DNA of 64,000 nt from an uncultured Bdellovibrionales bacterium (lineage in GTDB: Bacteria > Bdellovibrionota > Bdellovibrionia > Bdellovibrionales > SG-bin7), in the NCBI GenBank assembly GCA_964498095.1, contig CAZCFY010000002.1, positions 74,298-138,297 on the forward strand, in the 5' to 3' direction. The notes beneath the pieces were generated by a model that was not told where the DNA came from, ran no database searches, and saw nothing but the letters and a program-made list of their open reading frames with translations. Of the stretch, positions 9,333 through 52,699 are shown piece by piece; the first letter of the stretch is position 1, and each line of letters opens with the position of its first letter. The position numbers and the translations under genes were made by a program.

Positions 9333-9375
9333 GATGGCGGTCGATTTTTAAAAAAAGGTCTTCGCCTGCACGGGC

Positions 9376-12487: not shown

Positions 12488-12503
12488 AATGTCTCCTTAT
12501 TAT

Positions 12504-33523: not shown

Positions 33524-36516
33524 ATACGATCGTGCGTGCTGGCGCCGGCGCCGGAAAAACCACGCGTTTAATTAAAACGATTTTCGACTTTTGTGCTGAG
33601 TTCAAAGAGAAAAACAGCCGTTTTCCGCGCCTAATAGTATGTACGTTTACCCGCAAAGCCACCAAAGAGCTACGTGAGCGCCTAATGCAGAAAGCCTTAT
33701 TGTCGGGCGACTGGGACTTCGTTCGCTTCGTGGCCTCCAATCAACTGCATATCTCCACAATTCACGGGGTATTACTTAAATATTTAAGTCATTTCGGCTA
33801 CCGGCTTGGCTTGGACCCGCGCTTTCGCTTTGTCGATGGTGCGCAAGTAATGCATACGGCGAAGGACATCGTTCGGTCGGTATTAAATTCCGAAAGTCTT
33901 ACCCCTGACCAGCGGGCGCATATCCTGGAAACATTTGAAATCAAAGGTCTCGCTGAATTAGCGATAAAGTCTTTTGAGTTTTCTGGTTTATTCCCACACT
34001 TAAAAATGCATGGCGAGGAAAGCTTAAAGAACCTACTCAGTGAAGAAATTATAAGTGTGATAGCGGAGCTCTCCCGATTACGAGAAGGTCTCGAGAAATA
34101 TGTTGGCGAAAGGCCCATCATAGGTGAAGTTTCGCAGTGGCTGAATAAGCAGACGAAAGTTTTAAAAAATTACGCTGATGAGCAAATTAAGCTTCAGGAT
34201 GTGCTTACATCTCTGGCCACGCTTCCTAAGTTTCAGATTAGCGCAAAAAAGCCATTTCCATCCGATGATTTGCTCGGCAAAGTTCGCGAGGTGATTAAAG
34301 AAATCCGTGCCAGTTGGGACACACCCGCCTATGACTTTCAAAGTTTTTACCAGGTTGGCCAAACTTTATCCGCTGCCGAAGAGTGCATAAAGCTTTTTCG
34401 TGAAAAATTTCTGGCCCATAAATTAAATACCGGCGAACTTGAAATATCCGACCTGGAGGTGCTTTCCATGGAATTGCTGAGAAAGCATCCCGAGACGATG
34501 GGTTTATTTTCCTTGGATTGGGATTTCTGGATGATAGATGAATATCAAGACACGAGTCCCATTCAGGTGGAACTAATAAATAAGTTAAAAGGTAAGAGTG
34601 CGAGCTTTGTAGTGGGCGATCCGCAACAAAGTATATATTTATTTCGCGGGGCCCGCAGCGAGGTTTTTATCGCTGGCGAAAAAGCGGTTAGGGATAGTAA
34701 TGGCCTTCATGATGTTTTGGATGTAAATCACCGTTCGCGCCCGGAGCTTGTTGCGTTCTTCAACGAAGTTTTTGTGCGCGATGGGAACAAGTTTTTTACC
34801 GCTAAAGCGAGTAAGCCCGCCGGGGCGGCAAAGCTAGCCGACGTTAGGCTATTGATGAGTGATAGAGATGAGAGCGGATATATTCCCCTCATTGCAGAAG
34901 TAAATTTGCTAGTTGAAAGTGGTATTGCACCTGAAAACATTGCGATTTTGGCGCGGCAGAAAAAAAGCCTAAAGCAGGCGGCGAAAGCGTTAATGGATGC
35001 TAAAATTCCGTGCCTTATGCATTCGGCAGGAGCTTTCTATGAACGCCGTGAAATTTTGGACGCTCTGTCCTTATTGCGGTTTCTTTTGAATCCGCACGAC
35101 AATACCAATTTTATCGATTTAATTCGTTCTCCTTGGTTTAAGGTTGAAGATCTAAAGATTTTAGAAAGTCTCGCTAATAAAAAATGTTTTTCATTTTGGT
35201 CGGAAGTAATGAGTCAGCCCCTGTTTGAACCACTTAATAAGCTTTTACTTGAGCGTGATCGCTTTTCGATCACTGAAGTCTTTCGCCGCGCACTCATAGA
35301 CAATGGCTTTTTTGATTTTTCTCACTATCTAGATTTGTCGGGCCGAAGGGAGGCCAATCTTTGGAAGCTCGTAAATGATTTGGAACAAGCGGCCCGGCAG
35401 CCTGGCTTTAATTTTTTAAATTTTGCGCAACAAAAATTAAGAGAATTAAATTTGGATTATTCCGAAGATGAAGACGCTACGGCGGCAAAGCAGGGAAACC
35501 GTGTAAATCTTATGACAGTCCACCAGTCCAAAGGTTTACAGTTCGAACACGTGATCGTGTTAGATATCGACAAGGCGATTAAATCGGGCGGCCACCGCGG
35601 CCGCATGGGTTCCTTCGATGAAGAGAAGGGGTTTGTAAGTTTTCCCATATATAATAGATCGACTGCGAAAAACGAGCGGACATTAGGCGACATTACTTGT
35701 CAGAACGCGATGCGGGTCCGCGAGCTTGAAGAATCGGCGCGAGTATTTTATGTCGCGGTCACGCGTGCGATCAATGGCTTAACGATAATTGGCGGTCTAG
35801 AACCTAAGGAAGATTCCTGGCAGCGACTCATTCCATTTAATTTTGAGTCCGGAGAACACTCTGGTAATGGGTACTGCTACGTGGTGGAATACGGTCCATG
35901 GACGAAAAGTGATTTTAAAGTCCCGAGCGCGGAAATAGTCAAAAACATTTCGCCAGTGACTTTGCCAGAAACCTCTATGTTCGAAAAAATATCAGTCACC
36001 AACCTCGTTAAAGGATCAAGACAAAATAAAGAAAGACCGAAAGTACTTCTTAAATCACTGCAAAATTCAATTCAGACCTCGCGGCGTGGAGTGTTAATGC
36101 ACCAGTTGCTAGAGTCCGTGAAATATCAGGGGATTGATGCGGGACTAACGATGGCGGAGAGTTATTTTCCTGAAACCCCAAACGAAGCGCGTGCGGCGCT
36201 AAACTGGGTTTTTGAACTTAAGGATCCGGACATGAAGCAGATTCTTGAAACTGGATTTGCCGAATGGGGATTTCAATTTCGGCACGGTTCTCAGATTATA
36301 GACGGGCAAATAGATTTGTGGGGCAGGGCCAACGCCAAGGTTTGGATATTAGATTATAAAACCGGATCCTCTGTTTATGCCGATCGCGCATTTTCGCAAT
36401 TGACGTGGTATGCAAAGGCGCTTCGCGCGTATGGAATAACGGACAAAATTCAAATGGCCGTTATGTACCCCTTTGAAAAAAGTTTTGTGACTCAAACTTA
36501 TACGGAAAATTTCTAA
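33499..36516 (+). CDS. addA: AddA-like UvrD/Rep-family helicase with a C-terminal nuclease domain
   Basis: Walker A AGAGAGKTT, motif II MIDEYQDTSP, HQSKGLQFEHVIV, YVAVTRA, and C-terminal nuclease IDLWGRANAKVWILDYKTG. Start at ATG 33499 overlaps addB by 25 nt. Confidence 0.85.
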   Translation: MPGPSLNVNTIVRAGAGAGKTTRLIKTIFDFCAEFKEKNSRFPRLIVCTFTRKATKELRERLMQKALLSGDWDFVRFVASNQLHISTIHGVLLKYLSHFGYRLGLDPRFRFVDGAQVMHTAKDIVRSVLNSESLTPDQRAHILETFEIKGLAELAIKSFEFSGLFPHLKMHGEESLKNLLSEEIISVIAELSRLREGLEKYVGERPIIGEVSQWLNKQTKVLKNYADEQIKLQDVLTSLATLPKFQISAKKPFPSDDLLGKVREVIKEIRASWDTPAYDFQSFYQVGQTLSAAEECIKLFREKFLAHKLNTGELEISDLEVLSMELLRKHPETMGLFSLDWDFWMIDEYQDTSPIQVELINKLKGKSASFVVGDPQQSIYLFRGARSEVFIAGEKAVRDSNGLHDVLDVNHRSRPELVAFFNEVFVRDGNKFFTAKASKPAGAAKLADVRLLMSDRDESGYIPLIAEVNLLVESGIAPENIAILARQKKSLKQAAKALMDAKIPCLMHSAGAFYERREILDALSLLRFLLNPHDNTNFIDLIRSPWFKVEDLKILESLANKKCFSFWSEVMSQPLFEPLNKLLLERDRFSITEVFRRALIDNGFFDFSHYLDLSGRREANLWKLVNDLEQAARQPGFNFLNFAQQKLRELNLDYSEDEDATAAKQGNRVNLMTVHQSKGLQFEHVIVLDIDKAIKSGGHRGRMGSFDEEKGFVSFPIYNRSTAKNERTLGDITCQNAMRVRELEESARVFYVAVTRAINGLTIIGGLEPKEDSWQRLIPFNFESGEHSGNGYCYVVEYGPWTKSDFKVPSAEIVKNISPVTLPETSMFEKISVTNLVKGSRQNKERPKVLLKSLQNSIQTSRRGVLMHQLLESVKYQGIDAGLTMAESYFPETPNEARAALNWVFELKDPDMKQILETGFAEWGFQFRHGSQIIDGQIDLWGRANAKVWILDYKTGSSVYADRAFSQLTWYAKALRAYGITDKIQMAVMYPFEKSFVTQTYTENF

Positions 36517-36704
36517 ATAAATAAGAATTACTTGTACCGATTTGAGGCGCTTAACTTGGCGAACTCCTATACGCTGTCTAAAAAGTTTTTTGCCGCAAGT
36601 TCTATACGCGGTCCATCAAGGTATTATCTTTGCACAACTTTATGCCGATAGGACTAACAGCCAGGGATAGGCAGAGTTTCAATTTGAGACCGGGAAATTG
36701 GGGA

Positions 36705-37421
36705 ATGAAGTTGGCTTTCAAAATATCTTTGGTAACGATTGTATTGCTTGGAATAACTACCTTTTATTCCAACTGCACTCCCCAACACATGGTAGGGGCG
36801 CCGCTCTCAAGTATCAACACCGCCGAAATACTTCAAAGCTTACAAAATCAATCCACAACGATTTTAAGTCAGCGATGTGCTTCTTGCCACAACGACAATT
36901 CGACCAATTCCAGCCTTAAAGATATTTTGGATACGCAGTATTTGATTACGGCCGGTTATATTGATCCCGGTTCGCCACAAACATCTCTTCTCTATATGAA
37001 CGTCGTCGATAAAATTATGCCTCAAGGCGGTCCCGAACTCTCCGTCGAAGATATTGCGGTGTTACGCGACTGGATTGCGGCGCTCGGTGGAAATTTTGAT
37101 ACATTTATTGGTGCTGTTGATGGGCCAACCACTGGCAATACAAATGTTATAGGTACGTTTTTGCAAGTAAACGCAATTTTACAACAGCGCTGTGTTGCTT
37201 GTCATAACGGGCAACGCCGGCCAAATTTAAATTTACCTTATGCCCAACTAATTGCCGAAACAACAGCTGCGGGTCTTCCCTTAATCTCTCCTGGAGAGCA
37301 ATCGAATTCTCGTCTTTATCTCTCTGTGGCCAACAATTCAATGCCACAGGGAAGTCCGCTCACAAATACGCAAAAAGAAATCATCCGCACTTGGGTTGCG
37401 GCAGGAGCTCGTAATGACTAA
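36705..37421 (+). CDS. operon gene A: lipoprotein with two planctomycete-type cytochrome-c-like (PSCyt1-like) CXXCH modules
   Basis: Start at ATG 36705 (MKLAFK). Signal ending FYSNC. Two modules of the form C-x-x-C-H ... S-x-L-Y ... M-P-Q-G ... W-I/V-A-A-G (CASCH at 36876-36890, CVACH at 37191-37205). Confidence 0.65.
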   Translation: MKLAFKISLVTIVLLGITTFYSNCTPQHMVGAPLSSINTAEILQSLQNQSTTILSQRCASCHNDNSTNSSLKDILDTQYLITAGYIDPGSPQTSLLYMNVVDKIMPQGGPELSVEDIAVLRDWIAALGGNFDTFIGAVDGPTTGNTNVIGTFLQVNAILQQRCVACHNGQRRPNLNLPYAQLIAETTAAGLPLISPGEQSNSRLYLSVANNSMPQGSPLTNTQKEIIRTWVAAGARND

Positions 37422-39105
37422 ATTGCGTCGCACCTTAGGTTTTATTGGTTTATTCCTGTTACTTAGTTTGAGTTTCCATAACTGTATTTCGGGTTCGTCT
37501 GCGGATTCGAGCGCGGGGACGGGAAGTAATGGTGGTAATGTTATTCCCGCGTGTACTTACTCAAGCAATCCTGCACCCGTTCTCCAAGGAATTTTTACCG
37601 ACAGTGCTTTGACTAATTCCGTTTCGTCGATTTCTTACCGCGTAGGCATGGGAAATGATGCCGGCAATGAGGCTACTCGCACATTGTATTTGCGTGCCAA
37701 CTCCGGCGATAATTATAGCAGTGTAATATCTGTGAACTGTAATGGTGGTACTGGAATTGCCGCTAACTGCGATATTAATAATGGTAATCTCCGTGTGCGG
37801 ATTAATCCCGATCAAGGCGCTGAGTGTTTATCGGGCTCCACCGCAATACAAATCAATGTGAGTGATTTGGTAAATGCTCCAGGTTGTCAAAACCTTGCAG
37901 CGCAGTCGAACTCCTTAACTTTGAATGTGAATCTTACCAATGGTTGTCTGCCGACAATTCGATTAAATCCTCCCAATCAATATTCCTTTGGACAAATGGG
38001 GGCAAGTGTCGCCATCGACGGCAATTGGGCTGTTGCCGCAACTCCGGGTGATGAGCTTTCTGGGGTTGATGCCGGAGCTGCACATGTTTTTCAGCGCAAT
38101 GTAAATCAATGGACTAATTTTCAAAGAATCGTTCCAAATAGCATTGCTGCCGGCGCTTCGCTGGGCGCGGTTGCAATTTCTGGGACGACAATGGTCTTGG
38201 GCGCAAACTTATATGCCAATGGCACAGGCCGGGCCTGGGTTTACCAGTTTAGCGGAACTTCATGGGTGTTGGCCGCAGAACTTAATGCTCCCACACCGAT
38301 TGTCGGCGAAAAATTTGGTACTTCTGTAGCAATTTCAAATGGGGTTATTGCCGTCGGCGCACCCAGAAACTCTGCTATGGGGTCACAGTCCGGCGCGGTC
38401 TATTTATTTTCAGGATCTAATTTTGCTTCCGTGCAGACTGTTTATCCTTATATTGATGGCAATATCGCCGGTGATACTCTTGTTCAGGGCGAGTTTGGTA
38501 CGAGCGTCTCGTTGAATGGAACTTCATTAGTTGTGGGTGCGCCATTTCCTAATTCCTCTATTACACGCAGTGAAGCCGTCTACTTATTTAGACAAAATGG
38601 AAACTTTGCCGCCGCCCAAAAGATTTCCAATAGTGATGGCGGCAGTACAAAGAGATTTGGGGCAGCGATTCTTCAAAGTGGTAACTCTTTAATTATTGGC
38701 GCGCCATTTTACTCTTCTAATATGAATAGTGAAGTCGGCCGAGCCTATGTTTATTCGCGCGCGGACACGGCCGCAAACTTTAGTTTTACCCGCCAATTAA
38801 ATCCCGGCGATCCCGGTGTAAAAGATCACTTTGGACAATCCGTTTTCTTGAGTGGAAATTATTTTTATGTCGGCGCCCCCGATAAAACTTTCGATCAACT
38901 TGCCAAGGTTGGAGCCGTTTATATTTTCAATAGTGATGGGTCACAAAATTTCAAAGTGCGCTCCCGCCGCGCCGACCGCGAAAATGACTCCTTTGGCGTT
39001 TCGATTGGTGTTTCTAATGGGTGGATGATTTCCGGCGCCTTTAATGACGAAAGCGACGTCAATTACCTGGATGCTGGCTCCGTATATATGGTGGATGTGC
39101 CGTGA
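37414..39105 (+). CDS. operon gene B: lipoprotein with a Cys-containing N-terminal region and a 7-repeat FG-GAP-like beta-propeller
   Basis: ATG 37414 overlaps the gene A stop by 8 nt. Signal ending SFHNC. Seven repeats of the pattern FG.SV...G....VGAP......G.VY.F (e.g. EKFGTSVAISNGVIAVGAP...GAVYLF). Confidence 0.65.
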   Translation: MTKLRRTLGFIGLFLLLSLSFHNCISGSSADSSAGTGSNGGNVIPACTYSSNPAPVLQGIFTDSALTNSVSSISYRVGMGNDAGNEATRTLYLRANSGDNYSSVISVNCNGGTGIAANCDINNGNLRVRINPDQGAECLSGSTAIQINVSDLVNAPGCQNLAAQSNSLTLNVNLTNGCLPTIRLNPPNQYSFGQMGASVAIDGNWAVAATPGDELSGVDAGAAHVFQRNVNQWTNFQRIVPNSIAAGASLGAVAISGTTMVLGANLYANGTGRAWVYQFSGTSWVLAAELNAPTPIVGEKFGTSVAISNGVIAVGAPRNSAMGSQSGAVYLFSGSNFASVQTVYPYIDGNIAGDTLVQGEFGTSVSLNGTSLVVGAPFPNSSITRSEAVYLFRQNGNFAAAQKISNSDGGSTKRFGAAILQSGNSLIIGAPFYSSNMNSEVGRAYVYSRADTAANFSFTRQLNPGDPGVKDHFGQSVFLSGNYFYVGAPDKTFDQLAKVGAVYIFNSDGSQNFKVRSRRADRENDSFGVSIGVSNGWMISGAFNDESDVNYLDAGSVYMVDVP

Positions 39106-41417
39106 GAAATTTACTTTTTATATTGTTGATTCTTGTAACCACACCCGCTTTAGCGCTGGATATTTTTGGGCGTGATGCCGCCAGTGGCGGGCAGGGCTCA
39201 CGTAATGGTCTAGTGGCACTTTACAATTTTAAAGGTACGCGCGCTAATGGTGCCGTTGTTCCCGCAAATATAGTCGCCGACGAATCCGGCGTAGGAACAC
39301 CACTGGACCTCACCATCACTGACCTTACGCGCGCCACGCGTACTTGTGCAGAGTTTGTATTTGATCCGGTTTCAAATCAGCTACAAACGGTTTGTAGTAT
39401 TGATTTCTTAGCTGAGGGTGCCGTTGCGAAAAGTTTATCCGACGCCACAAAAATTACTTCCCAATGCCAATCGACAAACGAAATGCAGGTTGAAGTTTGG
39501 TTGAAAAATGACCGGGATGATGATCCACGTATCCGCAATATGATGGTGCCTCTTAAAATCGTTACGATGAGCTCGCCTACCGGTAGCAGCGAAACAATCA
39601 ATGGAAGCACTACATATCGCGGCGGATCCAATGACGCCAATTTCTTTTTAGGTTATAACTATAATGATGCCGCTCAATATTTAGCGTCAGTGAGATCTGG
39701 TCCCCGCCAAACGCGTGCAGCTACGATGAATGATGGCTTGGTAGAGTTTAACCGTTATCGCGTGGAAAATGGCCATACCGTAGCAACCTCCGGCGATAAC
39801 GCTGATTTAAAAATTTTGGAAAAAGAGAAATTCCAGCATGTGATCTTTAACCGTAATTCGCGGGGGGAAGTTCGTCTTTACGTAAGTTCAGCCAGTTTAA
39901 CGGCACAGGGTACGGTTCCTGTTTTACGTCAACAAGTGGCGGGAGCCGCCAACGCTAATTTTTCGGGTTGGGGAAGTAATCTTGTTTTGTCTCTCGGTAA
40001 CGAGCCTACTTTTAGCGATGCCACCGCGCCGCGTATTTCTAATAATAGCGCAAACCGCACGGAAAGCCGTAATTGGCGCGGTCAAATTTATATGCTCGCG
40101 GTTTACTGCCGGGCCCATAGTGACCAAGATATTTTGGGTGCCGCGGCGCCGAGTGCTAACTTTTTATCGATTCCACCAAATCCGAATGTGACTCTTACAC
40201 CGCTACACACGCAAGCGGCGCAACTCTACACTCGTATTACTGGCGTAAAAATTCCCGCAACGGCGCCAATTATTTCTGGCATAAATGATGCCCGCGTTCC
40301 GCAGCAAACAGTCACACGTGGAATGGTTCAATATCTTCAAGATGGCCAACCTTTGCAGGCGGCACTATTGGCGACCCAGGAAGACAGCTTTTATAATACA
40401 ACCGTAAGAGATTTTGCAAAACGAATGTCGACACGCGATGAGACAGTTAATACTCCACTTAATGATCTTGTCGCTACCGTTATCGGAGTTGCGGCTAACG
40501 AAAAAGACGCCCGCCTTTTATTAACTGGAAATTTCTATTATATGGGAGATCCCGCGACCACGGCGTTACCCAATGATTTGCAGCGCGACCTTTTGACTTC
40601 TAACAACCACTACGAATCCATGGAAAGAGTAGGGTATAACTTGCGCCGGGTATTAAAACGCATGGATGGCCAAAAAGTATTTACAGGTACAACAATTGTT
40701 GATCATCCAGATCCCGCTGGTCTAATTACCTCACGGGCTTTTATGGCCGCTCACGCTGTGGCGGGAACAAATCGCCGGCTCGTAGAATTCGCATTCCGCG
40801 AATTTATGTGCATACCAATCGCGGGCTGGGCAGATTCCACGGGGCCAGATAATTATATTGGCCGCGACGTGGACCGCTTCCCTGGCGGCGATCATGCGAA
40901 ATTCTTAACGACCTGCCGAAGCTGTCACTCAAACATGGATGGCTTGCGGGGCGCCTTCGCTAAATTTAATTTTGCCGACAATTTCGTTAAATACGCACCG
41001 CTGATGCCCGTAGTAACCGACCCTGACGACGAAGGTGCCACTAACATGTGTCAAAACCCCACGGGAATCGCGTGTAAAATGAATCGCAATTTCGACACCT
41101 TTCCTGGAGGTTATGTCACGACTGATGACAGCTGGGTAAATAATGCCAATAGAAATTCAAATGGCGCTTATTTTGGTTGGGGTTCGACTCTAAGCGGGCG
41201 CGGCGTGCGGGCACTTGCAAGCACCATGGCGGCGACGAAATCTTTTTCTAGTTGCATGGCCAAGCGCGCCTTCCGTTCGGTTTGTAAACGCGAGGCCACA
41301 AGTTTTGATTCCGCGCTCATCGATCAAGTAAGTTTGGATTTTGTAAATGAACAATATAATTTAGAGAGATTATTTGCGCGTATTGCAATTTCGCGCGAGT
41401 GCATGGGGGATTTATGA
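39102..41417 (+). CDS. operon gene C: secreted LamG-like plus DUF1588/PSD-like protein with one CXXCH
   Basis: ATGA-type overlap with gene B. SPase-I signal PALA/LD. LamG-like end motif NWRGQIYMLAVYCRAHSDQDILG. C-terminal CRSCHSNMDGLRGAFAKFNF resembles the C..CH...DP.G motif of planctomycete DUF1588-type proteins (from memory, unverified). Confidence 0.55.
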   Translation: MRNLLFILLILVTTPALALDIFGRDAASGGQGSRNGLVALYNFKGTRANGAVVPANIVADESGVGTPLDLTITDLTRATRTCAEFVFDPVSNQLQTVCSIDFLAEGAVAKSLSDATKITSQCQSTNEMQVEVWLKNDRDDDPRIRNMMVPLKIVTMSSPTGSSETINGSTTYRGGSNDANFFLGYNYNDAAQYLASVRSGPRQTRAATMNDGLVEFNRYRVENGHTVATSGDNADLKILEKEKFQHVIFNRNSRGEVRLYVSSASLTAQGTVPVLRQQVAGAANANFSGWGSNLVLSLGNEPTFSDATAPRISNNSANRTESRNWRGQIYMLAVYCRAHSDQDILGAAAPSANFLSIPPNPNVTLTPLHTQAAQLYTRITGVKIPATAPIISGINDARVPQQTVTRGMVQYLQDGQPLQAALLATQEDSFYNTTVRDFAKRMSTRDETVNTPLNDLVATVIGVAANEKDARLLLTGNFYYMGDPATTALPNDLQRDLLTSNNHYESMERVGYNLRRVLKRMDGQKVFTGTTIVDHPDPAGLITSRAFMAAHAVAGTNRRLVEFAFREFMCIPIAGWADSTGPDNYIGRDVDRFPGGDHAKFLTTCRSCHSNMDGLRGAFAKFNFADNFVKYAPLMPVVTDPDDEGATNMCQNPTGIACKMNRNFDTFPGGYVTTDDSWVNNANRNSNGAYFGWGSTLSGRGVRALASTMAATKSFSSCMAKRAFRSVCKREATSFDSALIDQVSLDFVNEQYNLERLFARIAISRECMGDL

Positions 41418-42055
41418 AAAGAAAAATAATGAGCCTAACTTTTGTGGCGCTCATACTCGGGGCTATGGGCTCAGGAATATTTTTCTACCAAGGCTGTGGC
41501 AATGAAATGGCGTCAGGAAATTCAGCAACGATGTGTACCCCAGGAGCCGCCGGTGCACCTATCGACAAAAACTATGATGTTGTTCCGGGAGAGCAAACTG
41601 TATCGGTCGCTTACGGCCGCCCGCTTTTAGATTCCATGGTAGCGTGTACCGGAATAGGCCAACCAAGTACCCGCACGCTAAATGAATGGACAGCCCGCAA
41701 TCAGAGTTTATCTGAGTACGGGAGTCTAACGGAGGTTTCGGGCGCCATGATGATGGCTGTAGCCGCCGTTGCGGGAGAAGTTTGCCGCGATCTATTGGAT
41801 AAGGAAATTCCGCTGACAAACGGGTCACGCGGTATTTTTGCCAATGTTGATTTTGCAAAAGGCGGTAGCATGTCAGTTGCTGAAATTAATTCGGCGGCCG
41901 ATATGCTTGGAATTTCGTGTTGGCAGCGCTTGCCGACTTTAGATGAGAAATCAATGATCGAAACCGCAGTTAATCAGCTCAGCGCAAGTACAGAGCTGGG
42001 AGCTTTAAGTTTATGTACTTCCATGCTTGGCAGCTTAGCTGCCATTGCGCAATAG
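41414..42055 (+). CDS. operon gene D: small lipoprotein (possible DUF1595-like fragment)
   Basis: ATG 41414 overlaps the gene C stop (ATGA). Signal ending FFYQGC. No confident family. Confidence 0.5.
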   Translation: MKRKIMSLTFVALILGAMGSGIFFYQGCGNEMASGNSATMCTPGAAGAPIDKNYDVVPGEQTVSVAYGRPLLDSMVACTGIGQPSTRTLNEWTARNQSLSEYGSLTEVSGAMMMAVAAVAGEVCRDLLDKEIPLTNGSRGIFANVDFAKGGSMSVAEINSAADMLGISCWQRLPTLDEKSMIETAVNQLSASTELGALSLCTSMLGSLAAIAQ

Positions 42056-42068
42056 GATCGGGGATGAT

Positions 42069-43556
42069 ATGAAACTTTTTGGAAAATATAAATCTATTCG
42101 CGAGATGCTAGAAAAAGAAGACTCTAAGGAGCTTGCCAAGCGCTTTCCCCATGGCAAGCCCATTACTCGCCGCGATCTCTTAAAAGCGGGTGCCCTGCAA
42201 TTTGCGGCGACCATGACGGCGCCGACTTTATTTGAAATCTTGCTTAACGCCGAAGTGGCCAGGGCCCAGGCGTGTCTACAGGCGCCAACGTTTGTGGGAC
42301 TAAAATTAAACGGTGGGGCGGCGATGCTTGGCAATTTTGTGGCTATGGCGCAAAATCGCGACTACTTATCCACTTACGAGCAATTAGGACTCGGTACGCG
42401 TACGCAAATTTCGGCGCGGGTAACGAATGCGTTTGGAGAAGCTAAGTTTTTTGACGGCTCCCAATTTTTGGCGGGAATTCAGACTACGGCAGCGGCGACA
42501 ACTTTAGCGAGTACTTCATTTGTTGGAATTCCCGTTGCAAGTAATGATGACACCGACCAAAACCCTTTTGACGTTACTTATTTTATAAGTAAGTTTGGCG
42601 TCGTCGGAAATATTTTGCCAAATCTAGGGCGCCGGCAATCATTAACTGGAATTGCGCAACAACCCGCCTTAGCAAAAACGCCGCCGACACCCTTAAGTGT
42701 TGGCAGTCTCGCAGATATCTCCAATGCGCTTTCGGTCCAGGGCAGTCTTGCGGTTTTAAGTGACGCTCAAAAAGTAAGTGTATTTAACGCCATAAATAAA
42801 CTTAGCGAGTCCCAAGCGAGAACTCTCGCCAGCAATACGGGTGGGACGGTTTTACAACAATTGGTAAATCAGGCGACATCACAAAATATGAGTCTGGTTT
42901 CGAGTTCCACAAATGGTATTGATCCGTTGCAGGACACAGCGGTGAGCGCGCGTTTTAATACTATCTGGGCTAATGCTAATAATCAAAATATGCAAAATCA
43001 AAATGCGGGTGCCATGGAAAGAGTTTTTGGCACCATGGTTTACAACACCTTAAGAGGAAATGCCGGAACCTGCAATATGGATATGGGTGGTTATGATTAT
43101 CACGGGCAAGGACGGGCCACTCAAGACGCGCAGGATTTAGCGGCAGGACGCGTGATGGGACAAATTTTAGAATCGGCGGCAGCGATGCAAAGACCAGTCA
43201 TGCTAATGGTAACAAGTGACGGCGCGGTCGGAGCTCCCGCCGGTTCGGGCCCCGGTGCTGCTTTTACTTCGGACCGGGGACAGGGAGGATGCATATATTT
43301 ATTTGCATACCATCCGTTACGACGGCCGCCAGCTACGGACCGAAATGGCCGAGCTGATCATCAAGTTGGACAGTTAGCGGGACAAGCCGCGGTTGATACA
43401 ACTTTTTTAACGGGTAATGATCCCGCTCTGGCAGGACTTGCGGCTTTTGCGAATTTTGCCTCGTTTGCGGGAAATCTTGGCGCGTTCTTTTCGATTTCAG
43501 GAAATGTTTGGAATCAAGATCAAGTGGAACAAGTAGTACGTTTGAGGAAGGTATAA
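42069..43556 (+). CDS. operon gene E: Tat-signal protein, DUF1501/DUF1552-like (alkaline-phosphatase/sulfatase-superfamily-like)
   Basis: ATG 42069 with GGGGA upstream. Twin-arginine motif ITRRDLLKAGALQFAA followed by ARAQA. GGYDYHG resembles the GGWDTH motif I associate with DUF1501 (unverified). Confidence 0.55.
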   Translation: MKLFGKYKSIREMLEKEDSKELAKRFPHGKPITRRDLLKAGALQFAATMTAPTLFEILLNAEVARAQACLQAPTFVGLKLNGGAAMLGNFVAMAQNRDYLSTYEQLGLGTRTQISARVTNAFGEAKFFDGSQFLAGIQTTAAATTLASTSFVGIPVASNDDTDQNPFDVTYFISKFGVVGNILPNLGRRQSLTGIAQQPALAKTPPTPLSVGSLADISNALSVQGSLAVLSDAQKVSVFNAINKLSESQARTLASNTGGTVLQQLVNQATSQNMSLVSSSTNGIDPLQDTAVSARFNTIWANANNQNMQNQNAGAMERVFGTMVYNTLRGNAGTCNMDMGGYDYHGQGRATQDAQDLAAGRVMGQILESAAAMQRPVMLMVTSDGAVGAPAGSGPGAAFTSDRGQGGCIYLFAYHPLRRPPATDRNGRADHQVGQLAGQAAVDTTFLTGNDPALAGLAAFANFASFAGNLGAFFSISGNVWNQDQVEQVVRLRKV

Positions 43557-43564
43557 TTTATTAA

Positions 43565-45196
43565 ATGAAATTTATTTTAGGGCTGAGTTTTATTTTTATT
43601 TTGGTTGTGGGGTACAGTAATTGTTCTCCCGATCACGAATTAGGTTCGGCGTCGTCTACAGGTACTAATTATTGGAGCTGCGGCGATGCGCTCGATAATT
43701 TGTCACTATTTAGCCGAACCTATCAGCCATTTTTAATGAATAACTGTGCGGCTTGTCACTCTGGCGGTGGACCGGGACCTGGGGCATTTGCGTCGAGTGG
43801 AGTGCAGTTGGCTTACGATAGCTTTTCAGCTCTCGGATTTTCGCGCATTAATGCGCGCGCCTTAGACGGCCACAGTACCGGATCGGGGCCACAACATACT
43901 TCGTCTATTAATTCGATTACTTCTTACTATATTGAAGGAATAGATACTATTGAACGGTGCCAAGCGACGGGAACAGATCAATTGACGCAAGACCAAGACG
44001 ATCCCTCCCGCTGGCGTACGCGCAGTAAACCCATTAACCCGAATATTGATAGCCCGACAACAGTATCTTGGGATTTATCTTCGGAAATTATTCCAAATGG
44101 AAATTACAACGCTGCGGACTTTGCGGGCGTTACTCTTTCGGCGCGCGTGGAGATCTTTCAGCGCCCTGGCGTTTTTGCATATGTAATTTCTAATCCTACT
44201 CTATCGACGTCAAACTCCGACATTCGAATTGAGAGTTTGCTATTTAAAGTCAACGGTACGTCAAGCCCCGCACAACGGGCCTTTTATTTCGTGGACCGCG
44301 GCATCCGTATTGGTACCGAGCGAATTTCCGGTGGCGCCATGGTGATCTTGGGTGACGTGCGTACCACAGATGTACTGTCTGTTTCCATTGGTAAATTAGA
44401 GCGGGTAACGTTGCCGCCGCCCATTTTGGGACCCGAAGTAAGCTTTGGATTAGCAAGCCAAACAGTGAATGAAGACTATCAAATTGTGAATATCCCCGTG
44501 GTACTTTCTAAGCCGTGGGATGTTCCAACTTCGGCAGAAATTGTTTTTGGCACGGATACTACAATTAAAGATCAATGTTGCCGCACGACGATTAATGATA
44601 ATGGGCAAACAATAAATGTGAATCACTTCGACCGCGATATACAAGATTATGACATCGATCCTCTTTTGCCTATTAATAGCCGATTATTGTATGAGGCGGT
44701 AAATGTTCGCGGCCGCTATCTGGTTACCTTTGCCATTGGTGAAACCAGCAAAAACCTACGAATTAAAATTGTTCATGATGATCGTGATGAGCAAAATGAA
44801 GTTTTGCACTTACGAATTGATGCCGCGAAACTAAATGGTTTACGCGCGGCCAATACTTTGCAGGACTTCCGTCTAACAATTACCGATAACGACGAACCTT
44901 TTGCGGGAACGGCTTTATCTTATTCGGCACTTCTGAATAATGGTGGAATTTTGGCGAACGAATGTTTGCGTTGCCATAACTCGGTACTTAACCGTGGCGG
45001 CTACGACATAACCAATTACGAGCAGCTTGTGCGTAAAGCTATCTTAAGACCTGGAGACCCCACGAACAGCTTAATGTTTTTACGGATGGACGCAAATATT
45101 CCAGGCCTAGATCCAATGCCCTTAACGGGTTTGATCGACGCTTCTCAACGTTTTGACGTAAAACAATGGATCCTTCAGGGCGCACCTAACAACTAA
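43565..45196 (+). CDS. operon gene F: lipoprotein with an N-terminal CXXCH, a central Calx-beta-like domain and a C-terminal PSCyt1-like CXXCH module
   Basis: Signal ending GYSNC. CAACHSGGGPGPG. Calx-beta-like FAIGETSKNLRIKIVHDDRDEQNEVLHLRID...FRLTITDND. C-terminal CLRCHN...PGDPTNSLMFLRM...MP...WILQGA. Confidence 0.6.
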   Translation: MKFILGLSFIFILVVGYSNCSPDHELGSASSTGTNYWSCGDALDNLSLFSRTYQPFLMNNCAACHSGGGPGPGAFASSGVQLAYDSFSALGFSRINARALDGHSTGSGPQHTSSINSITSYYIEGIDTIERCQATGTDQLTQDQDDPSRWRTRSKPINPNIDSPTTVSWDLSSEIIPNGNYNAADFAGVTLSARVEIFQRPGVFAYVISNPTLSTSNSDIRIESLLFKVNGTSSPAQRAFYFVDRGIRIGTERISGGAMVILGDVRTTDVLSVSIGKLERVTLPPPILGPEVSFGLASQTVNEDYQIVNIPVVLSKPWDVPTSAEIVFGTDTTIKDQCCRTTINDNGQTINVNHFDRDIQDYDIDPLLPINSRLLYEAVNVRGRYLVTFAIGETSKNLRIKIVHDDRDEQNEVLHLRIDAAKLNGLRAANTLQDFRLTITDNDEPFAGTALSYSALLNNGGILANECLRCHNSVLNRGGYDITNYEQLVRKAILRPGDPTNSLMFLRMDANIPGLDPMPLTGLIDASQRFDVKQWILQGAPNN

Positions 45197-45203
45197 ATTG
45201 ACT

Positions 45204-45240
45204 GGCCTCCCCAATGGTAGGAAAATTTTAGGGGGAGACC
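45204..45240 (+). promoter_or_regulatory. candidate anti-Shine-Dalgarno hairpin upstream of operon gene G
   Basis: ggcctcccc (45204-45212) can pair with ggggagacc (45232-45240) at 8 of 9 positions with a 19-nt loop. The right arm contains the GGGGGAG Shine-Dalgarno of the TTG start at 45244. Confidence 0.3.
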
Positions 45241-45243
45241 GGC

Positions 45244-46761
45244 TTGCAATTGTTTATAACTCTACTGTTATTTTTAGGTTCTATCGGCGCTAAGGCGGAG
45301 CCCTGGATGTCCAATCGCTACGCGCAGAATTGTTCTTCTTGTCATAGTCCGGGGCGGCTAAATTTGCCAACCAAAGACCGCCGCTGTACTTTGTCTTGCC
45401 AGGCCTGCCACGTAAATCCTAGCGGTGGCGGCATTCGCAATAGTTATGGAGTGTGGAATCAGCAGAGATGGTTACGCTCGTTTAAAACCGAATTTTTGGA
45501 AAGTAAAAATACGCCTGCGCCCTTTCGTTCCCAGGTGTGGGGCAGCAATGTAGGTAAGAATAAGAAATCTGGCGGGAAAGACTCTAAGGAGACGCAAAGA
45601 GATCAGCGCGACAAAAAAGATTTTCCAATTTTATATATTGTCAAAGAAATTGACTACCGCGAAAAAGACTATGACCGTGGAGATAATCAAGAGCTAATTA
45701 CCGCAAAATCCATGAGTGAGTTCTTGGCCCGAGTTCCCGAAGAGGATCCGTATATCCATGAACGCCGCCAATGGGTTTTTGCTGGCGGGAACTTGCGTTT
45801 ACTAAATTTTGATCAGAAGGTGACGGCGCCGTCAGGAACCGTAACTTCCGGCAATTATACTTTGCCCATGTCGTTTGACGTAGGAGTGCGCTTAAAGCCA
45901 TTTGTTAAAAAGAATCTAAATTTGGTTTTTGAGCACCGCTATTATAATTATCCCGGTCAAAACGGCAACGTGCGCACGAGTCCCGATTGGATTACGGCGG
46001 CGGATGGATCAAAATCACGTTCGGCTTATGTGCTCATTGATGATTTACCTTTTGCGAGTTACGTGCAGTATGGTCTTTATCGGCCCCTGATGGGCATGAA
46101 TACTCCAGATCACACTTCGCTAGCGCAAAGCATGATGTACACCTACGATACCTCCGATGGCTTAACGAATATTCCCGCCGACGCGGCATTATACGTGGCA
46201 AAAGCGCTGTCGATAGGGACTTCTCCTAACGTACCATTTGCCAATGTTCACCTCATAAAACCTGTGGATAATCCTTCTTTCCCCAATTTTTCGCAAGACG
46301 ACGGCTTCGCGGTGAACTTGGGAGGGCGCTTCGTGCGTTATGGTTTTTCGGCTATGCTGTCCTACTGGAATACAAAAGCTAAAATCACCGGTTTTGAAGT
46401 GAATAAAAAAATGATTGGCCTAAACTTCGGTGGAACCTGGAACAATTTCATCGCTAACGTGGACCTTACGCAAATCGAAAAAGATTATACCGGTGGAACC
46501 AGCGACAAGGGACATGTCCAAACCCTGGAATTAAAATACCGCATGTGGCGTGAAATCTATGCGCAAGTTAATGTGGCGCGCGCCAATACGACCCGTACTC
46601 TCAAAGACGGTACCGCGAGCGAATTTATGTTTGGGTTAAAGTCTTTCTTAACTCCCGGCGCGGAATTTGAAATTTTAAACGTGGCACGCGAGGATGGCTC
46701 AGCTTCCGGTGGGAAGTATTCGCGCAGTCAGTGGCAAATGATGTTAAATCTCTTTTTCTAA
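45244..46761 (+). CDS. operon gene G: outer-membrane beta-barrel-like protein with two N-terminal CXXCH motifs
   Basis: TTG start with GGGGGAG 6 nt upstream. SPase-I signal GAKA/EP. CSSCH and CQACH within the first about 45 mature residues, then a Lys/Asp-rich linker. The long strand-like remainder ends in an aromatic beta-signal (WQMMLNLFF). Confidence 0.6.
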   Translation: MQLFITLLLFLGSIGAKAEPWMSNRYAQNCSSCHSPGRLNLPTKDRRCTLSCQACHVNPSGGGIRNSYGVWNQQRWLRSFKTEFLESKNTPAPFRSQVWGSNVGKNKKSGGKDSKETQRDQRDKKDFPILYIVKEIDYREKDYDRGDNQELITAKSMSEFLARVPEEDPYIHERRQWVFAGGNLRLLNFDQKVTAPSGTVTSGNYTLPMSFDVGVRLKPFVKKNLNLVFEHRYYNYPGQNGNVRTSPDWITAADGSKSRSAYVLIDDLPFASYVQYGLYRPLMGMNTPDHTSLAQSMMYTYDTSDGLTNIPADAALYVAKALSIGTSPNVPFANVHLIKPVDNPSFPNFSQDDGFAVNLGGRFVRYGFSAMLSYWNTKAKITGFEVNKKMIGLNFGGTWNNFIANVDLTQIEKDYTGGTSDKGHVQTLELKYRMWREIYAQVNVARANTTRTLKDGTASEFMFGLKSFLTPGAEFEILNVAREDGSASGGKYSRSQWQMMLNLFF

Positions 46762-46774
46762 CAGAGTTAATACA

Positions 46775-48097
46775 ATGGAAGAAAAAATTAAGTCTATTCT
46801 TGAATGCCCTGTCTGCCGCAAATCCGAATTAAATTGTGAACATAAGTTTCCACTCATCAATGGAATTCCCTGGGTGTTTAAATCTACGGAGTCTACTCTT
46901 CTCCAGTGGCAGGCGCGGACAACCAAGCTCTTACAAATGTGCCTGGTGCAAATGGCGCAGCTTGATGATGAACTGTTAAAAGTAGATTTGTTACCAGAAA
47001 CCAAAGAGCGCCTCAAAATATTACGCCAAGCGATCGACGAAAATGAAAAGTTTTTGCAGAAGTTTTTGAGCCCCCTATGGCCAAAAAGCCAATCGGAGGT
47101 CGCGCCCAGTTTGGCGCAGGCGTTAGAAGAAAAAGTAGCCTCGCAACAGGCCATAGAAAGTTATTTTAATAATGTTTTCCGTGATTGGGCTTGGCGTACC
47201 GGGGAAAACGAAAAGAGCTTAGAAGCCATTATGGGAGTCCTACCCAAAACATTTAAACCAAAAAAGATGGTTGTTTTAGGTGCCGGAAGTGGCCGTTTGA
47301 CAGTGGATTTGCAGACAGAATTAGGAATTGAAGATGCCTTTGCCGTCGATATTAATCCGTTTCTTCTATTCCTCTTTCGAGACCTGATGGCCGGAAAGTC
47401 TCATGAGCTTTGGGAAATTCCTATTTCGCCCTTGTCACTTGCCAATACGGCGAAAAAGCAAACCTTAAAGACTTCTGGAAAAACAAAAGGCAGTGTACAG
47501 TTCCTATTTGCCGACGCCACAAATTTGCCGTTTAAGAAAAAATCCGTCGATTGCATTTTGACTCCTTGGTTTATCGATATTATCAAACAAGATTTGCGTC
47601 AGTTAATGAGGCGTATTAATAATACGCTTGAACCCGGGGGGCATTGGATTAATTTTGGTCCCTTGGGCTTTAGACACTTTGCCAATGCCGAAAATTATAG
47701 TGTCGAGGAAATCGCCAGCTTACTTGATGAAGAGGGATTTAAACTCATAAAGAAGGATATTACGCCAGTTCCTTACCTCAGCTCGCCACTCAGCGGCCTT
47801 GAGCGCAGCGAAAAGGTTCTAATTTTTTTGGCGGAAAAGAAAAAGGAGTCCAAGTCCGCCGAAAAATACTCACCGTTACCAGAGTGGATTATGGACCCCG
47901 CGAAACCTATAAAACCAAATCGTGATTTAAAATACGAAATTTCGCGCCATCATCTTGGTTTTCAAATTCTGAGTTGCATCGACGGCAAAAACTCAATCCA
48001 CGGTATTGCTGGTATGGTGGCTAAGCACTATGGGGTAAACCCGGCCCAGGCCCAAGAAATCGTGACGGGATTTTTAATTGAGAAGTTTGAGGACTAA
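46775..48097 (+). CDS. operon gene H: cytoplasmic Trm112-like zinc ribbon + class I SAM methyltransferase + PqqD-like C-terminal domain
   Basis: No signal peptide. CPVCRKSEL...CEHKFPLINGIPW (Trm112/UPF0434-like). SAM motif I VVLGAGSGRLTVDL, then FADATNLPF and LEPGGHWINFGP. C-terminal IDGKNSIHGIAGMVAKHYGVNPAQAQEIVTGFLIEKF resembles PqqD/RRE domains. Confidence 0.6.
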   Translation: MEEKIKSILECPVCRKSELNCEHKFPLINGIPWVFKSTESTLLQWQARTTKLLQMCLVQMAQLDDELLKVDLLPETKERLKILRQAIDENEKFLQKFLSPLWPKSQSEVAPSLAQALEEKVASQQAIESYFNNVFRDWAWRTGENEKSLEAIMGVLPKTFKPKKMVVLGAGSGRLTVDLQTELGIEDAFAVDINPFLLFLFRDLMAGKSHELWEIPISPLSLANTAKKQTLKTSGKTKGSVQFLFADATNLPFKKKSVDCILTPWFIDIIKQDLRQLMRRINNTLEPGGHWINFGPLGFRHFANAENYSVEEIASLLDEEGFKLIKKDITPVPYLSSPLSGLERSEKVLIFLAEKKKESKSAEKYSPLPEWIMDPAKPIKPNRDLKYEISRHHLGFQILSCIDGKNSIHGIAGMVAKHYGVNPAQAQEIVTGFLIEKFED

Positions 48098-51275: not shown

Positions 51276-52532
51276 TTAGGGATCGTTTGGAATTTCATTT
51301 GCGGCTTCAAGCAGTTCTTTGACCCTCTGGTCGAATCCCAAAGTGATTTCCTGTAGCCATATCTCAGGAGTAGAAATTTCGTGGTTTGCTTGAGGCGCCT
51401 CAGCCTTATGGAGATCTACAAAGTCTTCGGCAATTTTTTGAAGCTTTGTAAAATCCTCTTGCGTAAGATTTATTTTTTTATAAATCGCGGAGTTGCCATT
51501 AAATGTGCTTCCCGTTTTAACCGTAGGTAATATCTCATCGCGCGAAATTCTAACTCCTGTCGTTAGACAGATATTCAACATAACGGCTGCCAGCGGGGAA
51601 ACGTAAGGACGGGAATAAAATTCGATGGCACTTAATGACGAATCTTTGGGTTGAGACTTATCTCGAGTTGTCTCTAAGAGAGCCGGTAAGATCGCAGAAA
51701 ATGGAACAAAGTTATTTGCTCCTCTGAGAGCGGCGAAACTTGACGTAAGATTGGCCATGCCGGCGTCATTATCAAACCCTCGGGTCAACAATATCTTTTC
51801 AACCACAAGATCTGTAGCTGAACCCAATTCGGATCTCCGGCTTTTTAAAAATTCGACAAACTCCTTCGTTAGCATATTTATATCATGACCGCGTTTCATA
51901 AACTTGCGAGGGTATAGAATTGCGCCGAGATGAAATGCAATTTCATGTGGGGTCAATTTGGGGTTGTTATCAGCATAAGGAAAATATAAAAGAATATCGC
52001 GTTCGGGATCAGCCTTTACATATAATTCAAAAAACTCTTTGGGAGAAACAAAGCCTGCTTGTTCTGGCATGTAAGATATCGGTTCATATCCCTTACGTTT
52101 CAAAATGATATTCATTTGCCTAATCCACTTTTCGAGCCTTTTTGCGCCCGGCACTAACATATAGATCGTTCCATCTTCTGCTATTTTAATTCGGAAGCCC
52201 ATTTTAAATGCCAACCTCTTGCCAAATAGAAAAATAGGATTACGGGGATCTGATTGTTGTGTGGACGCGCCTAAATGATCATAGGAGGAGTCCCATTCTG
52301 CATTTTTATTCTTTTTTAAAAGTACTCGACCGTCACTTTGTTGAAGTTCGACAAACCTAACGGTAGGATTCGCTTCTCTGACGTTATTGCGCCTAAGGTT
52401 TCTTTGCAGCGATTTAAACTCCGAACGAAATTCTTCAATCGAAAATAGAGCTGAGCATTCGTTAGCGGCTTGGGTTGAAAAGCTAAGAAAAGCAAAACTC
52501 AAAATTACAAATAATAAGGAAATCTTGGTCAT
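51276..52532 (-). CDS. secreted protein of unknown function (about 418 aa)
   Basis: Start placed at the internal ATG (MTKISLLFVILSFAFLSFSTQA/ANE signal peptide). No motif recognised; HEIAFH is HExxxH, not a zincin HExxH. Confidence 0.5.
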   Translation of the reverse strand: MTKISLLFVILSFAFLSFSTQAANECSALFSIEEFRSEFKSLQRNLRRNNVREANPTVRFVELQQSDGRVLLKKNKNAEWDSSYDHLGASTQQSDPRNPIFLFGKRLAFKMGFRIKIAEDGTIYMLVPGAKRLEKWIRQMNIILKRKGYEPISYMPEQAGFVSPKEFFELYVKADPERDILLYFPYADNNPKLTPHEIAFHLGAILYPRKFMKRGHDINMLTKEFVEFLKSRRSELGSATDLVVEKILLTRGFDNDAGMANLTSSFAALRGANNFVPFSAILPALLETTRDKSQPKDSSLSAIEFYSRPYVSPLAAVMLNICLTTGVRISRDEILPTVKTGSTFNGNSAIYKKINLTQEDFTKLQKIAEDFVDLHKAEAPQANHEISTPEIWLQEITLGFDQRVKELLEAANEIPNDP

Positions 52533-52699
52533 TATAAAACTATAAGCAATTAAAATGCCTACCAAAAACAACCTATACCATCTGGGGAGAGTTCTGGCCC
52601 TTGAAATGCCATTTTGCAGTTGCAGCTGTAAAGGGTTTTTACGGCTTGGCTACTGTGGGAGATTCTTATTCTTGCGCTTCAGAAGCCCCCAATCACACT

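Follow-up and report, generated by a model that had tools for sequence, protein, structure and literature searches.

The window analysed here, a 64,000-nucleotide (nt) stretch of a contig from an uncultured Bdellovibrionales bacterium, carries at positions 36705-48097 a chromosomal cluster of eight co-directional plus-strand genes, A to H (Table 1), which we tentatively read, with a probability of about 0.45, as encoding an extracytosolic redox enzyme system of the periplasm and outer membrane. The genes C, D, and E form its conserved core, and by profile similarity the cluster is a distant cousin, or divergent version, of the paired PSCyt/PSD and DUF1501 genes. A preliminary description of the window had proposed an eight-gene trans-envelope machine; the layout that it gave, with overlaps of 8, 4, and 4 nt at the A/B, B/C, and C/D junctions and gaps of 13, 8, 47, and 13 nt at the remaining ones, is borne out exactly by the open reading frame (ORF) coordinates.

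Seven CXXCH motifs were observed in 3,911 residues, against 0.01 expected from the Cys and His content, and the remaining long ORFs of the window (17,655 residues) contain none. The motifs are found in A (CASCH58 and CVACH163), C (CRSCH605), F (CAACH61 and CLRCH467), and G (CSSCH30 and CQACH52), the positions at which the preliminary description had located them, and their cysteines are conserved in the alignments of all four families. Because this number so exceeds the expected one, and because the motifs are invariant or nearly so across the families, haem binding is, as judged from these alignments, under selection; A, C, F, and G are predicted to be c-type cytochromes, each being an exported protein with a conserved CXXCH. 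The export signals, read by eye from the N-termini, agree with those proposed earlier for seven of the eight products (four lipoprotein-type, two signal-peptidase-I-type, and one twin-arginine). The N-termini of A, B, D, and F show a hydrophobic region followed by Cys (YSNC, FHNC, YQGC, and YSNC, respectively). These lipoboxes are non-canonical, but the Cys is kept in 64 of 65 homologues of F, 11 of 12 of B, 61 of 63 aligned sequences of D, and 26 of 30 of A. The signals of C and G are of the signal-peptidase-I type, E has the twin-arginine motif TRRDLLK, and H has no signal.

A genome scan with the E family yielded 80 loci at 28 to 42% identity, which together with three loci fetched earlier via E homologues gave 83 loci, analysed by BLAST and iterated hidden Markov models (HMMs). 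The C-D-E arrangement is present in about 77 of the 83, in Bdellovibrionota as well as in Steroidobacteraceae, Woeseiaceae, and other Gammaproteobacteria, and thus in two phyla. The exceptions are loci truncated by contig ends and L047, in which the search turned up no C and no intact E. On these comparisons C-D-E is a universal conserved core and a single unit, joined by F in Bdellovibrionota, where F follows E in nearly all loci. The idea of one eight-gene unit stands in that the genes are co-conserved, but the conserved unit is C-D-E (with F in Bdellovibrionota), and the eight-gene form is a minority elaboration of it. A long form, composed of B, a C with LamG, D, E, and a long F, and then of A if the contig extends further (A is absent in L043), occurs in 10 loci, and the B-C-D-E-F set is also found in L011; B lies 5' of a long-form C in 11 loci. 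All eight genes recur, rearranged, in two related genomes, as G divergent followed by B-C-D-E-F-A-H (L005) and as H divergent, B-C-D-E-F-A, and G convergent (L204, complete genome CP060220). Since these two loci differ in gene order and orientation, their composition argues that the accessory genes are functionally tied to the core and are not a matter of inherited synteny. G lies within reach of the core in four loci and H within 10 kb of it in 11.

A short form is present in the cultured Bdellovibrio sp. strains HCB337, HCB209, HCB185ZH, and HCB2-146. One contig of a Bdellovibrio metagenome-assembled genome (L011, positions 2-12645) carries the long form (B-C-D-E-F, minus strand) back to back with the short form (C-D-E-F, plus strand), and because of these two adjacent sets the family can be called paralogous within genomes. 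A prey-specific, predatory role was set aside: the core is equally conserved in Steroidobacteraceae and Woeseiaceae, and its presence in non-predatory Gammaproteobacteria makes such a role, which the preliminary description had touched on as a prey-derived substrate, unlikely.

The neighbourhood of the core in other lineages points to electron transfer. In 17 to 20 of the 23 gammaproteobacterial loci, the core stands beside genes for DUF3570, a thioredoxin-like protein, and DUF4266, in a divergent block of an HZS_alpha-like haem protein, an SH3 protein, a small outer-membrane protein, the thioredoxin-like Redoxin, DUF4266, and DUF3570. Three Bdellovibrionota loci have DUF3570, Redoxin, and DUF4266 co-directional and tightly upstream of C-D-E-F, with Pfam scores of 142.6, 77.3, and 61.4 bits, respectively, in L046. 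DUF3570 has been shown experimentally to be an ApbE flavinylation substrate, and ApbE, DUF3570, a thioredoxin-like protein, and DUF4266 have been proposed to form an extracytosolic electron-transfer system of unknown end function, with flavin/cytochrome redundancy reported between species (PMC8238504). The association of the core with this unit in other lineages argues that the core is a redox enzyme and that the same enzyme is served by alternative, interchangeable electron modules; from it we infer support for a trans-envelope redox conduit. The published system resembles the cluster in adjoining the C-D-E core in other genomes and in having a protein of about 370 to 420 residues with an aromatic C-terminal residue (a putative barrel) and covalent redox cofactors, but it is not in this window, and its cofactors are flavin and thiol instead of haem. 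G was also considered as a haem-bearing DUF3570 homologue, for which no homology was detectable (hhalign E value of 0.098).

Several further observations concern these neighbourhoods. The HZS_alpha (hydrazine synthase alpha-like) protein, of about 870 residues (L002, 3471-6086; L003, 3373-6039), is divergent from the C-like gene in 20 of the 23 gammaproteobacterial loci and may take the role of the B protein and the cytochromes of the window. In Steroidobacteraceae-type loci (L002, L062, L064, and L071, at about 11.4-21 kb), the genes after E or H encode, in this order, an AhpC/Redoxin-like protein, a 178-residue protein, two large TPR proteins, and ExbB-ExbD-ExbD-TonB; of the 23 gammaproteobacterial loci, 20 have the AhpC-like gene and 12 to 17 the later TPR/Exb/TonB genes. 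The same region of L003 holds a glutathione peroxidase and a catalase-peroxidase. The block that runs from DUF3570-Redoxin-DUF4266 to C-D-E-F in Bdellovibrionota contains small ORFs that lack a Pfam match (L046, 4330-5118 and 6963-7388; L060, 1209-1709), the one in L060 being weakly F-like and possibly a haem protein.

The conserved part of C is its C-terminal half (residues ~371-771). Across 28 aligned sequences from the two phyla, this half keeps its CXXCH, a GTNRR motif, and four more cysteines without exception, and the CXXCH is present in 78 of 80 homologues. The PSD2 domain (DUF1585, Pfam ID PF07624) scores 19.2 bits in the window, below the cut-off of 25.8, and 27.2 bits in the homologue in L005; PSCyt3 (DUF1588, Pfam ID PF07627) is sub-threshold at 13 to 16 bits. 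A profile search yielded 1,777 relatives, several of them with precomputed PSD2 (PF07624) and Laminin_G_3 domains. The LamG domain named in the preliminary description is seen in homologues of C, as Laminin_G_3 in P0419 (56% identity), P0405, and L023 and with 73.5 bits in a gammaproteobacterial LamG-D protein, but it is undetectable in the C of the window, where LamG (Pfam ID PF13385) gives no match even at an E value of ≤10. The PDB sequence search with C returned nothing. A homology of C to DUF1800 was considered and is marginal only (profile comparison E value of 1.5e-3 over 61 columns in the PSD2 region). D matches no Pfam or NCBIfam model; the profile built here locates it in about 80 of the 83 loci, and its gene invariably separates C from E. 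The gammaproteobacterial D forms the C-terminal end of a LamG/haem fusion protein, in loci whose C is of the short form.

The C-family HMM matches three ORFs in DUF1501 loci, two with PSCyt3 and PSD4 above the cut-off and one PSD2/PSCyt3-like, each immediately upstream of a Pfam-confirmed DUF1501 gene. Because of these matches, C-E is, at the level of sequence profiles, a distant homologue of the PSCyt3/PSD and DUF1501 pair. The pairing itself, which the preliminary description had put forward as established, is directly visible in the metagenome loci L121, L131, and L135, where PSCyt/PSD proteins are encoded directly upstream of twin-arginine translocation (Tat)-signal DUF1501 genes. That description had taken A and F for the planctomycete counterparts; they do carry PSCyt1 modules, but it is C, with its PSD2/PSCyt3-like half, that corresponds to the partner protein.

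PSCyt/PSD genes with DUF1501 or DUF1552 were first found in the Rhodopirellula baltica genome and may reach very high copy numbers in Planctomycetes and Verrucomicrobia. The literature consulted still gives the function of the PSCyt genes, and of these planctomycete and verrucomicrobial families, as unknown (PMC5615132), as had been stated for them before. The known arrangements, PSCyt3/PSD (DUF1588, DUF1592, and DUF1585) or PSCyt2/PSD1 with DUF1501 or DUF1552, share with the cluster a haem c protein with a PSD2 tail, often with LamG or CBM domains, immediately upstream of a Tat-exported protein of about 450 to 500 residues, and the HMMs of the C and E families detect PSCyt3/PSD4 and DUF1501, respectively. 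The cluster differs in the small lipoprotein D that always lies between C and E, in having its PSCyt1 modules on separate lipoproteins, and in the attached cytochrome-porin and methyltransferase. It also differs in distribution, being found in Bdellovibrionota and Gammaproteobacteria with one or few copies per locus, in contrast to the large gene families of the PVC (Planctomycetes-Verrucomicrobia-Chlamydiae) group. Pairs of DUF1800 and DUF1501 are likewise two-gene units with the Tat-signal DUF1501-type protein second (DUF1800 is upstream in 10 of 10 loci checked), but DUF1800 has no haem motif.

E itself had been called DUF1501-like, of which a remote collinear similarity stands, but not membership by HMM. 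E matches no Pfam or NCBIfam model and nothing in the PDB by sequence, and an exact look-up of the E and F of the window in assemblies gave no match. Its 93 word-index homologues are all unnamed, and an exhaustive profile search gave a family of 1,529 cluster representatives at 50% identity, with strong family members only, and no bridge to DUF1501, among the matches listed. Pfam applied to 32 diverse members returned nothing except a weak TAT_signal, and the DUF1501 HMM (Pfam ID PF07394) matches neither E nor any of these 32, even at E values of ≤1 to 10. The comparison set was fetched by GGFDTHANQ, which we take to be a DUF1501 motif; 10 of 10 ORFs checked are DUF1501 by Pfam at 86 to 110 bits, and true DUF1501 ORFs overall score 67 to 132 bits in the same tool. 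Profile comparison with hhalign gives 81% probability and an E value of 1.2e-5 over the Tat signal and the first strand-loop only. The alignment made without the Tat signal, whose score is not significant, is collinear over 353 columns, placing L.L.GG on QLSGGNDG, GGYDYH on GGFDTH, TSDG on SEFGR, and SDRG on TDHG. The E-family HMM matches 13 Pfam-type DUF1501 ORFs, mostly through the Tat signal and first strand; a second match, at GGYDYH, stays below significance. The invariant DUF1501 set GGNDG...RSH...GGFDTHANQ...SEFGR...GTDHG is replaced in E by GGA, S.DD, GGYDYH, TSDG, and SDRG, so that GGA stands for GGND, YDYH for FDTH, SDG for SEFGR, and SDRG for TDHG, and none of the 32 members is recognised as DUF1501. 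E shares with DUF1501 proteins the twin-arginine signal and the PSCyt/PSD-like partner C upstream, with D in between, and is best described as a probable remote relative with an altered residue set, in a separate family that lacks a model.

The invariant columns of E are H28, P31, R34, and R35 in the leader, followed by L80-x-G82-G83, D161, G341-Y-D-Y-H345, D384-G385, and D402, the two arginines of TRRDLLK being invariant in 32 homologues. The leader (42069-42176, residues 1-36) has an extension of about 25 to 30 residues before the twin arginines in E and all 32 aligned sequences, with H-x-x-P-x-T-R-R invariant or near-invariant, whereas in true DUF1501 proteins the twin arginines are close to the N-terminus. 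A partner in the cytoplasm, for instance H, might dock on this extension.

The AlphaFold2 model of E has a predicted local distance difference test (pLDDT) score of 82.9 and a predicted template modelling score of 0.79, and all 50 listed Foldseek matches in the PDB, which are weak, are enzymes of the alkaline-phosphatase superfamily, to which the DUF1501 clan presumably belongs. Since these matches are phosphoglycerate mutases, sulfatases, alkaline phosphatases, and a phosphoethanolamine transferase, E might be an ordinary hydrolase of this superfamily acting on phospho-, sulfo-, or phosphono-esters, in a system for nutrient scavenging where B and the LamG and Calx-beta parts would bind a polymer, G would be an uptake porin, and the haems would be structural or regulatory. 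The barrel of G does resemble general and phosphate-selective porins, and the PSCyt genes of Verrucomicrobia have been described with LamG/CBM-type domains and with sulfatase genes as neighbours (PMC5615132). We nevertheless regard this as unlikely: haem-bearing proteins with invariant CXXCH, counted as five in this comparison, are hard to explain as scaffolds, the core is repeatedly found beside the flavin/thiol electron-transfer unit, and E lacks the first metal-ligand Asp of DUF1501 (GGND to GGA) and has no obvious conserved nucleophile.

The accessory lipoproteins A and F both carry PSCyt1 modules (Pfam ID PF07635), as proposed, with conserved CXXCH motifs and scores above the cut-off of 22 bits (31.4 bits for A and 25.5 bits for F); A also matches Cytochrome_CBB3 (30.2 bits, cut-off of 27). 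The second CXXCH of A is conserved in 49 of 50 homologues and the first of F in 64 of 65, and of the 51 sequences aligned at the second motif of F, 50 retain its first Cys and 43 its second Cys and its His. The haem modules of the two proteins are homologous, the A-family HMM finding F at an E value of 1.8e-35 and the F-family HMM finding A at 2.5e-17. A stands at the front of the cluster in the window but after F in L004, L005, L025, L026, L041, L042, L045, and L204, and has thus moved. The Calx-beta domain (Pfam ID PF03160) of the preliminary description is, in F, a domain-like match of 22.8 bits that does not reach the cut-off of 27; the homologue in L004 scores 26.9 bits, and the match covers the last half of the model only. 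The FG-GAP propeller of B is clear, with seven FG-GAP_2 stretches (E value of 2.9e-45). The combination of a dihaem subunit, a propeller, a small Cys-rich subunit, and a cytoplasmic modifier recalls quinohaemoprotein amine dehydrogenase, an analogy only, the sole match being Dehyd-heme_bind in A at an E value of 0.087.

G matches no Pfam or NCBIfam model, and the PDB sequence search returned nothing, with MauG at an E value of 0.75 being noise. It has at least 197 unnamed homologues, almost all of them without a precomputed Pfam domain; those with a source name are all from Bdellovibrionales or Pseudobdellovibrionaceae metagenome-assembled genomes, bar one older "Proteobacteria bacterium" record. 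An alignment of 33 sequences shows no variation in the two CXXCH motifs, in an additional Cys (C48, in RRCTLSCQGCH), or in AEPW[LM]SNRYAQNC, and G terminates in FF. The AlphaFold2 model (pLDDT of 78.9) has 16 strands over residues 178-504, and the Foldseek matches are the porins Omp32, PorB, OmpF, and OprP (E values of 3e-12 to 1e-10, template modelling (TM) score up to 0.70 on the target). The CXXCH-bearing barrel of the preliminary description is thereby upheld, G being modelled as a 16-strand porin fused to a dihaem domain. A Lys/Asp/Ser-rich low-complexity stretch (45540-45620, residues ~100-125) lies between haem domain and barrel, and the length of this insert among homologues ranges from almost nothing to about 100 residues (alignment A3, columns 130-245).

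The nearest described architecture is Cyc2, an Fe(II)-oxidising fused cytochrome-porin with a single CXXCH, the motif PxFAR[QK][TY] five residues upstream of it, and a 16-strand OprP-like porin (PMC8406198). G shares the signal peptide, the N-terminal c-type haem domain with a conserved motif next to the CXXCH, the OprP-like 16-strand porin, and a length above 365 residues. It differs in having two haem motifs and the extra invariant Cys, in its AEPW[LM]SNRY motif, three residues upstream of the CXXCH and in place of PxFAR[QK][TY], in the variable Lys-rich insert of about 100 residues, and in lacking an Fe-oxidiser context. Because of the two haems and the different spacing, G appears to be Cyc2-like in design without being a Cyc2. 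The oxidation or uptake of iron or another metal, with G oxidising extracellular Fe(II) like Cyc2, A and F as carriers to the respiratory chain, and C-D-E as a metal-handling accessory, would agree with this architecture, with the resemblance of AEPW[LM]SNRYAQN-CXXCH to the AxPxFAR[QK][TY]-x5-CXXCH of Cyc2, and with the small cytochromes c that adjoin G homologues elsewhere. We consider it improbable, given the second haem and the departure of G from the Cyc2 signature in residues and spacing, a cluster without an inner-membrane component or oxidase, no Fe-related gene nearby, and a C-D-E core that occurs without G in most loci.

H is the methyltransferase anticipated for the cluster, of the CARME type (Pfam ID PF07942, 70.8 bits, cut-off of 27), and eight of eight homologues scanned are above the cut-off as well (30 to 55 bits). 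Its only PDB sequence matches are the carnosine N-methyltransferases 5x62 and 5yf0. PqqD scores 17.5 bits in H, below the cut-off, and 25.4 bits (cut-off of 23.4) in the homologue in L060; the N-terminal CPVC motif is Trm112-like by one homologue's weak sub-threshold Trm112p match only. In the gammaproteobacterial loci L064, L071, and L075, H directly follows E. By its sequence matches, H is an enzyme of the carnosine/histidine-N-methyltransferase type linked to E across phyla. CARNMT1, of the CARME family, methylates histidine N1 in carnosine and proteins (PMC10546975 and PMC12275196); H resembles it in the CARME match and the two PDB sequence matches but is bacterial, with the added CPVC motif and, at its C-terminus, a PqqD/RRE-like domain. 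The target of H is probably a component modified before export, with E as the obvious candidate, since E has a long conserved leader and, as a Tat substrate, would fold in the cytoplasm.

Whether the eight genes are one system can be weighed from their spacing and context. The F-G gap of 47 nt is the longest spacer of the cluster and contains a promoter-like site, which is only a lead, and in L055 and L059 G and H lie next to each other on the opposite strand; because of this pairing and the spacer, G-H may be a transcription unit of its own. In a promoter and terminator scan of the cluster, the number of promoter-like sites was not above that in shuffles, and no consensus promoter was singled out upstream of A. 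The cluster might accordingly be two or three independent units (A-F, or B-F and A, and G-H) packed together by chance or streamlining, as G standing alone in L205 and L206 would also allow. We find this improbable, since G and H lie within 10 kb of the core in the independently rearranged contexts of L005, L055, L059, and L204, H directly follows E in a different phylum, and the flanks in the window are unrelated housekeeping genes.

A redox enzyme system spanning periplasm and outer membrane would work as follows. E would be the catalytic subunit and C its dedicated haem partner, from which the dihaem PSCyt1 lipoproteins F and A would relay electrons between the core and G, and G would extend the path across the outer membrane to an electron donor or acceptor outside the cell. 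A surface or polymer ligand would be held by the B propeller together with the LamG and Calx-beta-like parts of C and F, respectively, and H, the only cytoplasmic protein, with its peptide-binding RRE-like domain, would modify a component, likely E, before export. No characterised pathway was assigned to the cluster by HMM searches, by PDB sequence searches with E, C, G, and H, or by fold searches with E and G, which leaves the preliminary description standing in this respect.

Several points weigh against such a system. Known enzymes of the alkaline-phosphatase superfamily are hydrolases or transferases, not oxidoreductases, and the fold match of E is weak (best Foldseek E value in the PDB of 2e-3, TM score of about 0.2). 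The hhalign score between E and DUF1501 is not significant once the Tat signal is removed (E values of 0.04 to 0.075). G and H are near the core in only the few loci given above, and G homologues occur away from it, beside small cytochromes c, in L205 and L206. The thioredoxin-like neighbours could simply serve cytochrome c maturation, the choice of a target for H is pure inference, and haem attachment, localisation, and co-transcription are predictions from sequence. A more specific proposal, which we consider decidedly unlikely, is that C-D-E represents a new class of extracytosolic oxidoreductase on an alkaline-phosphatase-type fold, in which E would be matured in the cytoplasm by the dedicated histidine-N-methyltransferase H, with its RRE-like domain on the Tat leader, and which would use interchangeable electron modules, here the dihaem cytochrome-porin with the PSCyt1 cytochromes and elsewhere the flavinylated DUF3570/thioredoxin/DUF4266 unit.

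Directly upstream of the cluster (30857-36516) lies an AddB/AddA-type pair that is unrelated to it, a PD-(D/E)XK nuclease followed, with a 43-nt overlap, by a UvrD helicase with a C-terminal PD-(D/E)XK domain; the downstream flank, a convergent lipoprotein and an alpha/beta hydrolase, is also unrelated. The rest of the window is ordinary chromosome with ftsA, ftsZ, a recN-like gene, an M3 oligopeptidase, an acyl-CoA synthetase, a Ser/Thr kinase, an L-aspartate-oxidase-like (nadB-type) gene, and a GGDEF gene. The base composition is flat, and an Rfam scan of the window found no families. A mobile or defence island was set aside, given the ftsA/ftsZ, recN, addAB-like, and nadB-type housekeeping genes and the unremarkable base composition. 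Elsewhere in the window, the Ser/Thr protein kinase (19765-21768, minus strand) has a C-terminal PEGA domain, and three ORFs of 430 to 570 residues have no Pfam match (9376-10824, 51276-52571, and 56819-58531).

Table 1. Features of the eight-gene cluster and its spacers (positions in the window)
Feature	Position	Strand	Description	Basis or remark
Upstream intergenic region	36517..36704	+	188 nt, likely cluster promoter region	between the AddA-like gene and gene A
A	36705..37421	+	predicted dihaem c-type cytochrome lipoprotein, 238 aa, two PSCyt1/cbb3-type modules	Pfam, CXXCH
B	37414..39105	+	seven-repeat FG-GAP beta-propeller lipoprotein, 563 aa	Pfam
C	39102..41417	+	secreted, predicted monohaem protein, 771 aa; LamG-like N-terminal half (by homology), PSCyt3/PSD2-like C-terminal half	
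D	41414..42055	+	small lipoprotein, 213 aa, 6 Cys	between C and E
E	42069..43556	+	predicted Tat-exported protein, 495 aa, putative alkaline-phosphatase-like fold; probable remote DUF1501 relative; presumed catalytic subunit	
F	43565..45196	+	predicted dihaem lipoprotein, 543 aa; N-terminal haem module, borderline Calx-beta-like middle, C-terminal PSCyt1	
F-G spacer	45197..45243	+	47 nt, promoter-like TTGACT-17-GAAAAT at 45198-45226	
G	45244..46761	+	predicted outer-membrane 16-strand porin with N-terminal dihaem domain, 505 aa	
H	46775..48097	+	cytoplasmic S-adenosylmethionine methyltransferase, CARME type; N-terminal Cys-rich CPVC, C-terminal PqqD/RRE-like domain	

The cluster thus appears as a divergent version of the PSCyt/PSD and DUF1501 pairs that comes with apparent working partners, namely, periplasmic cytochromes, an outer-membrane cytochrome-porin, and a cytoplasmic modifying enzyme. 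It also brings to light three sizeable families not covered by any Pfam or NCBIfam model, those of D, G, and E (the last with about 1,500 clusters at 50% identity), in a lineage that includes cultured strains. The use of cytochromes in one lineage and of a flavinylated unit in others for the same core leads to a concrete, testable redox hypothesis, and if C-D-E did prove to be an oxidoreductase, this would be the first functional handle on the PSCyt/PSD and DUF1501 superfamily.

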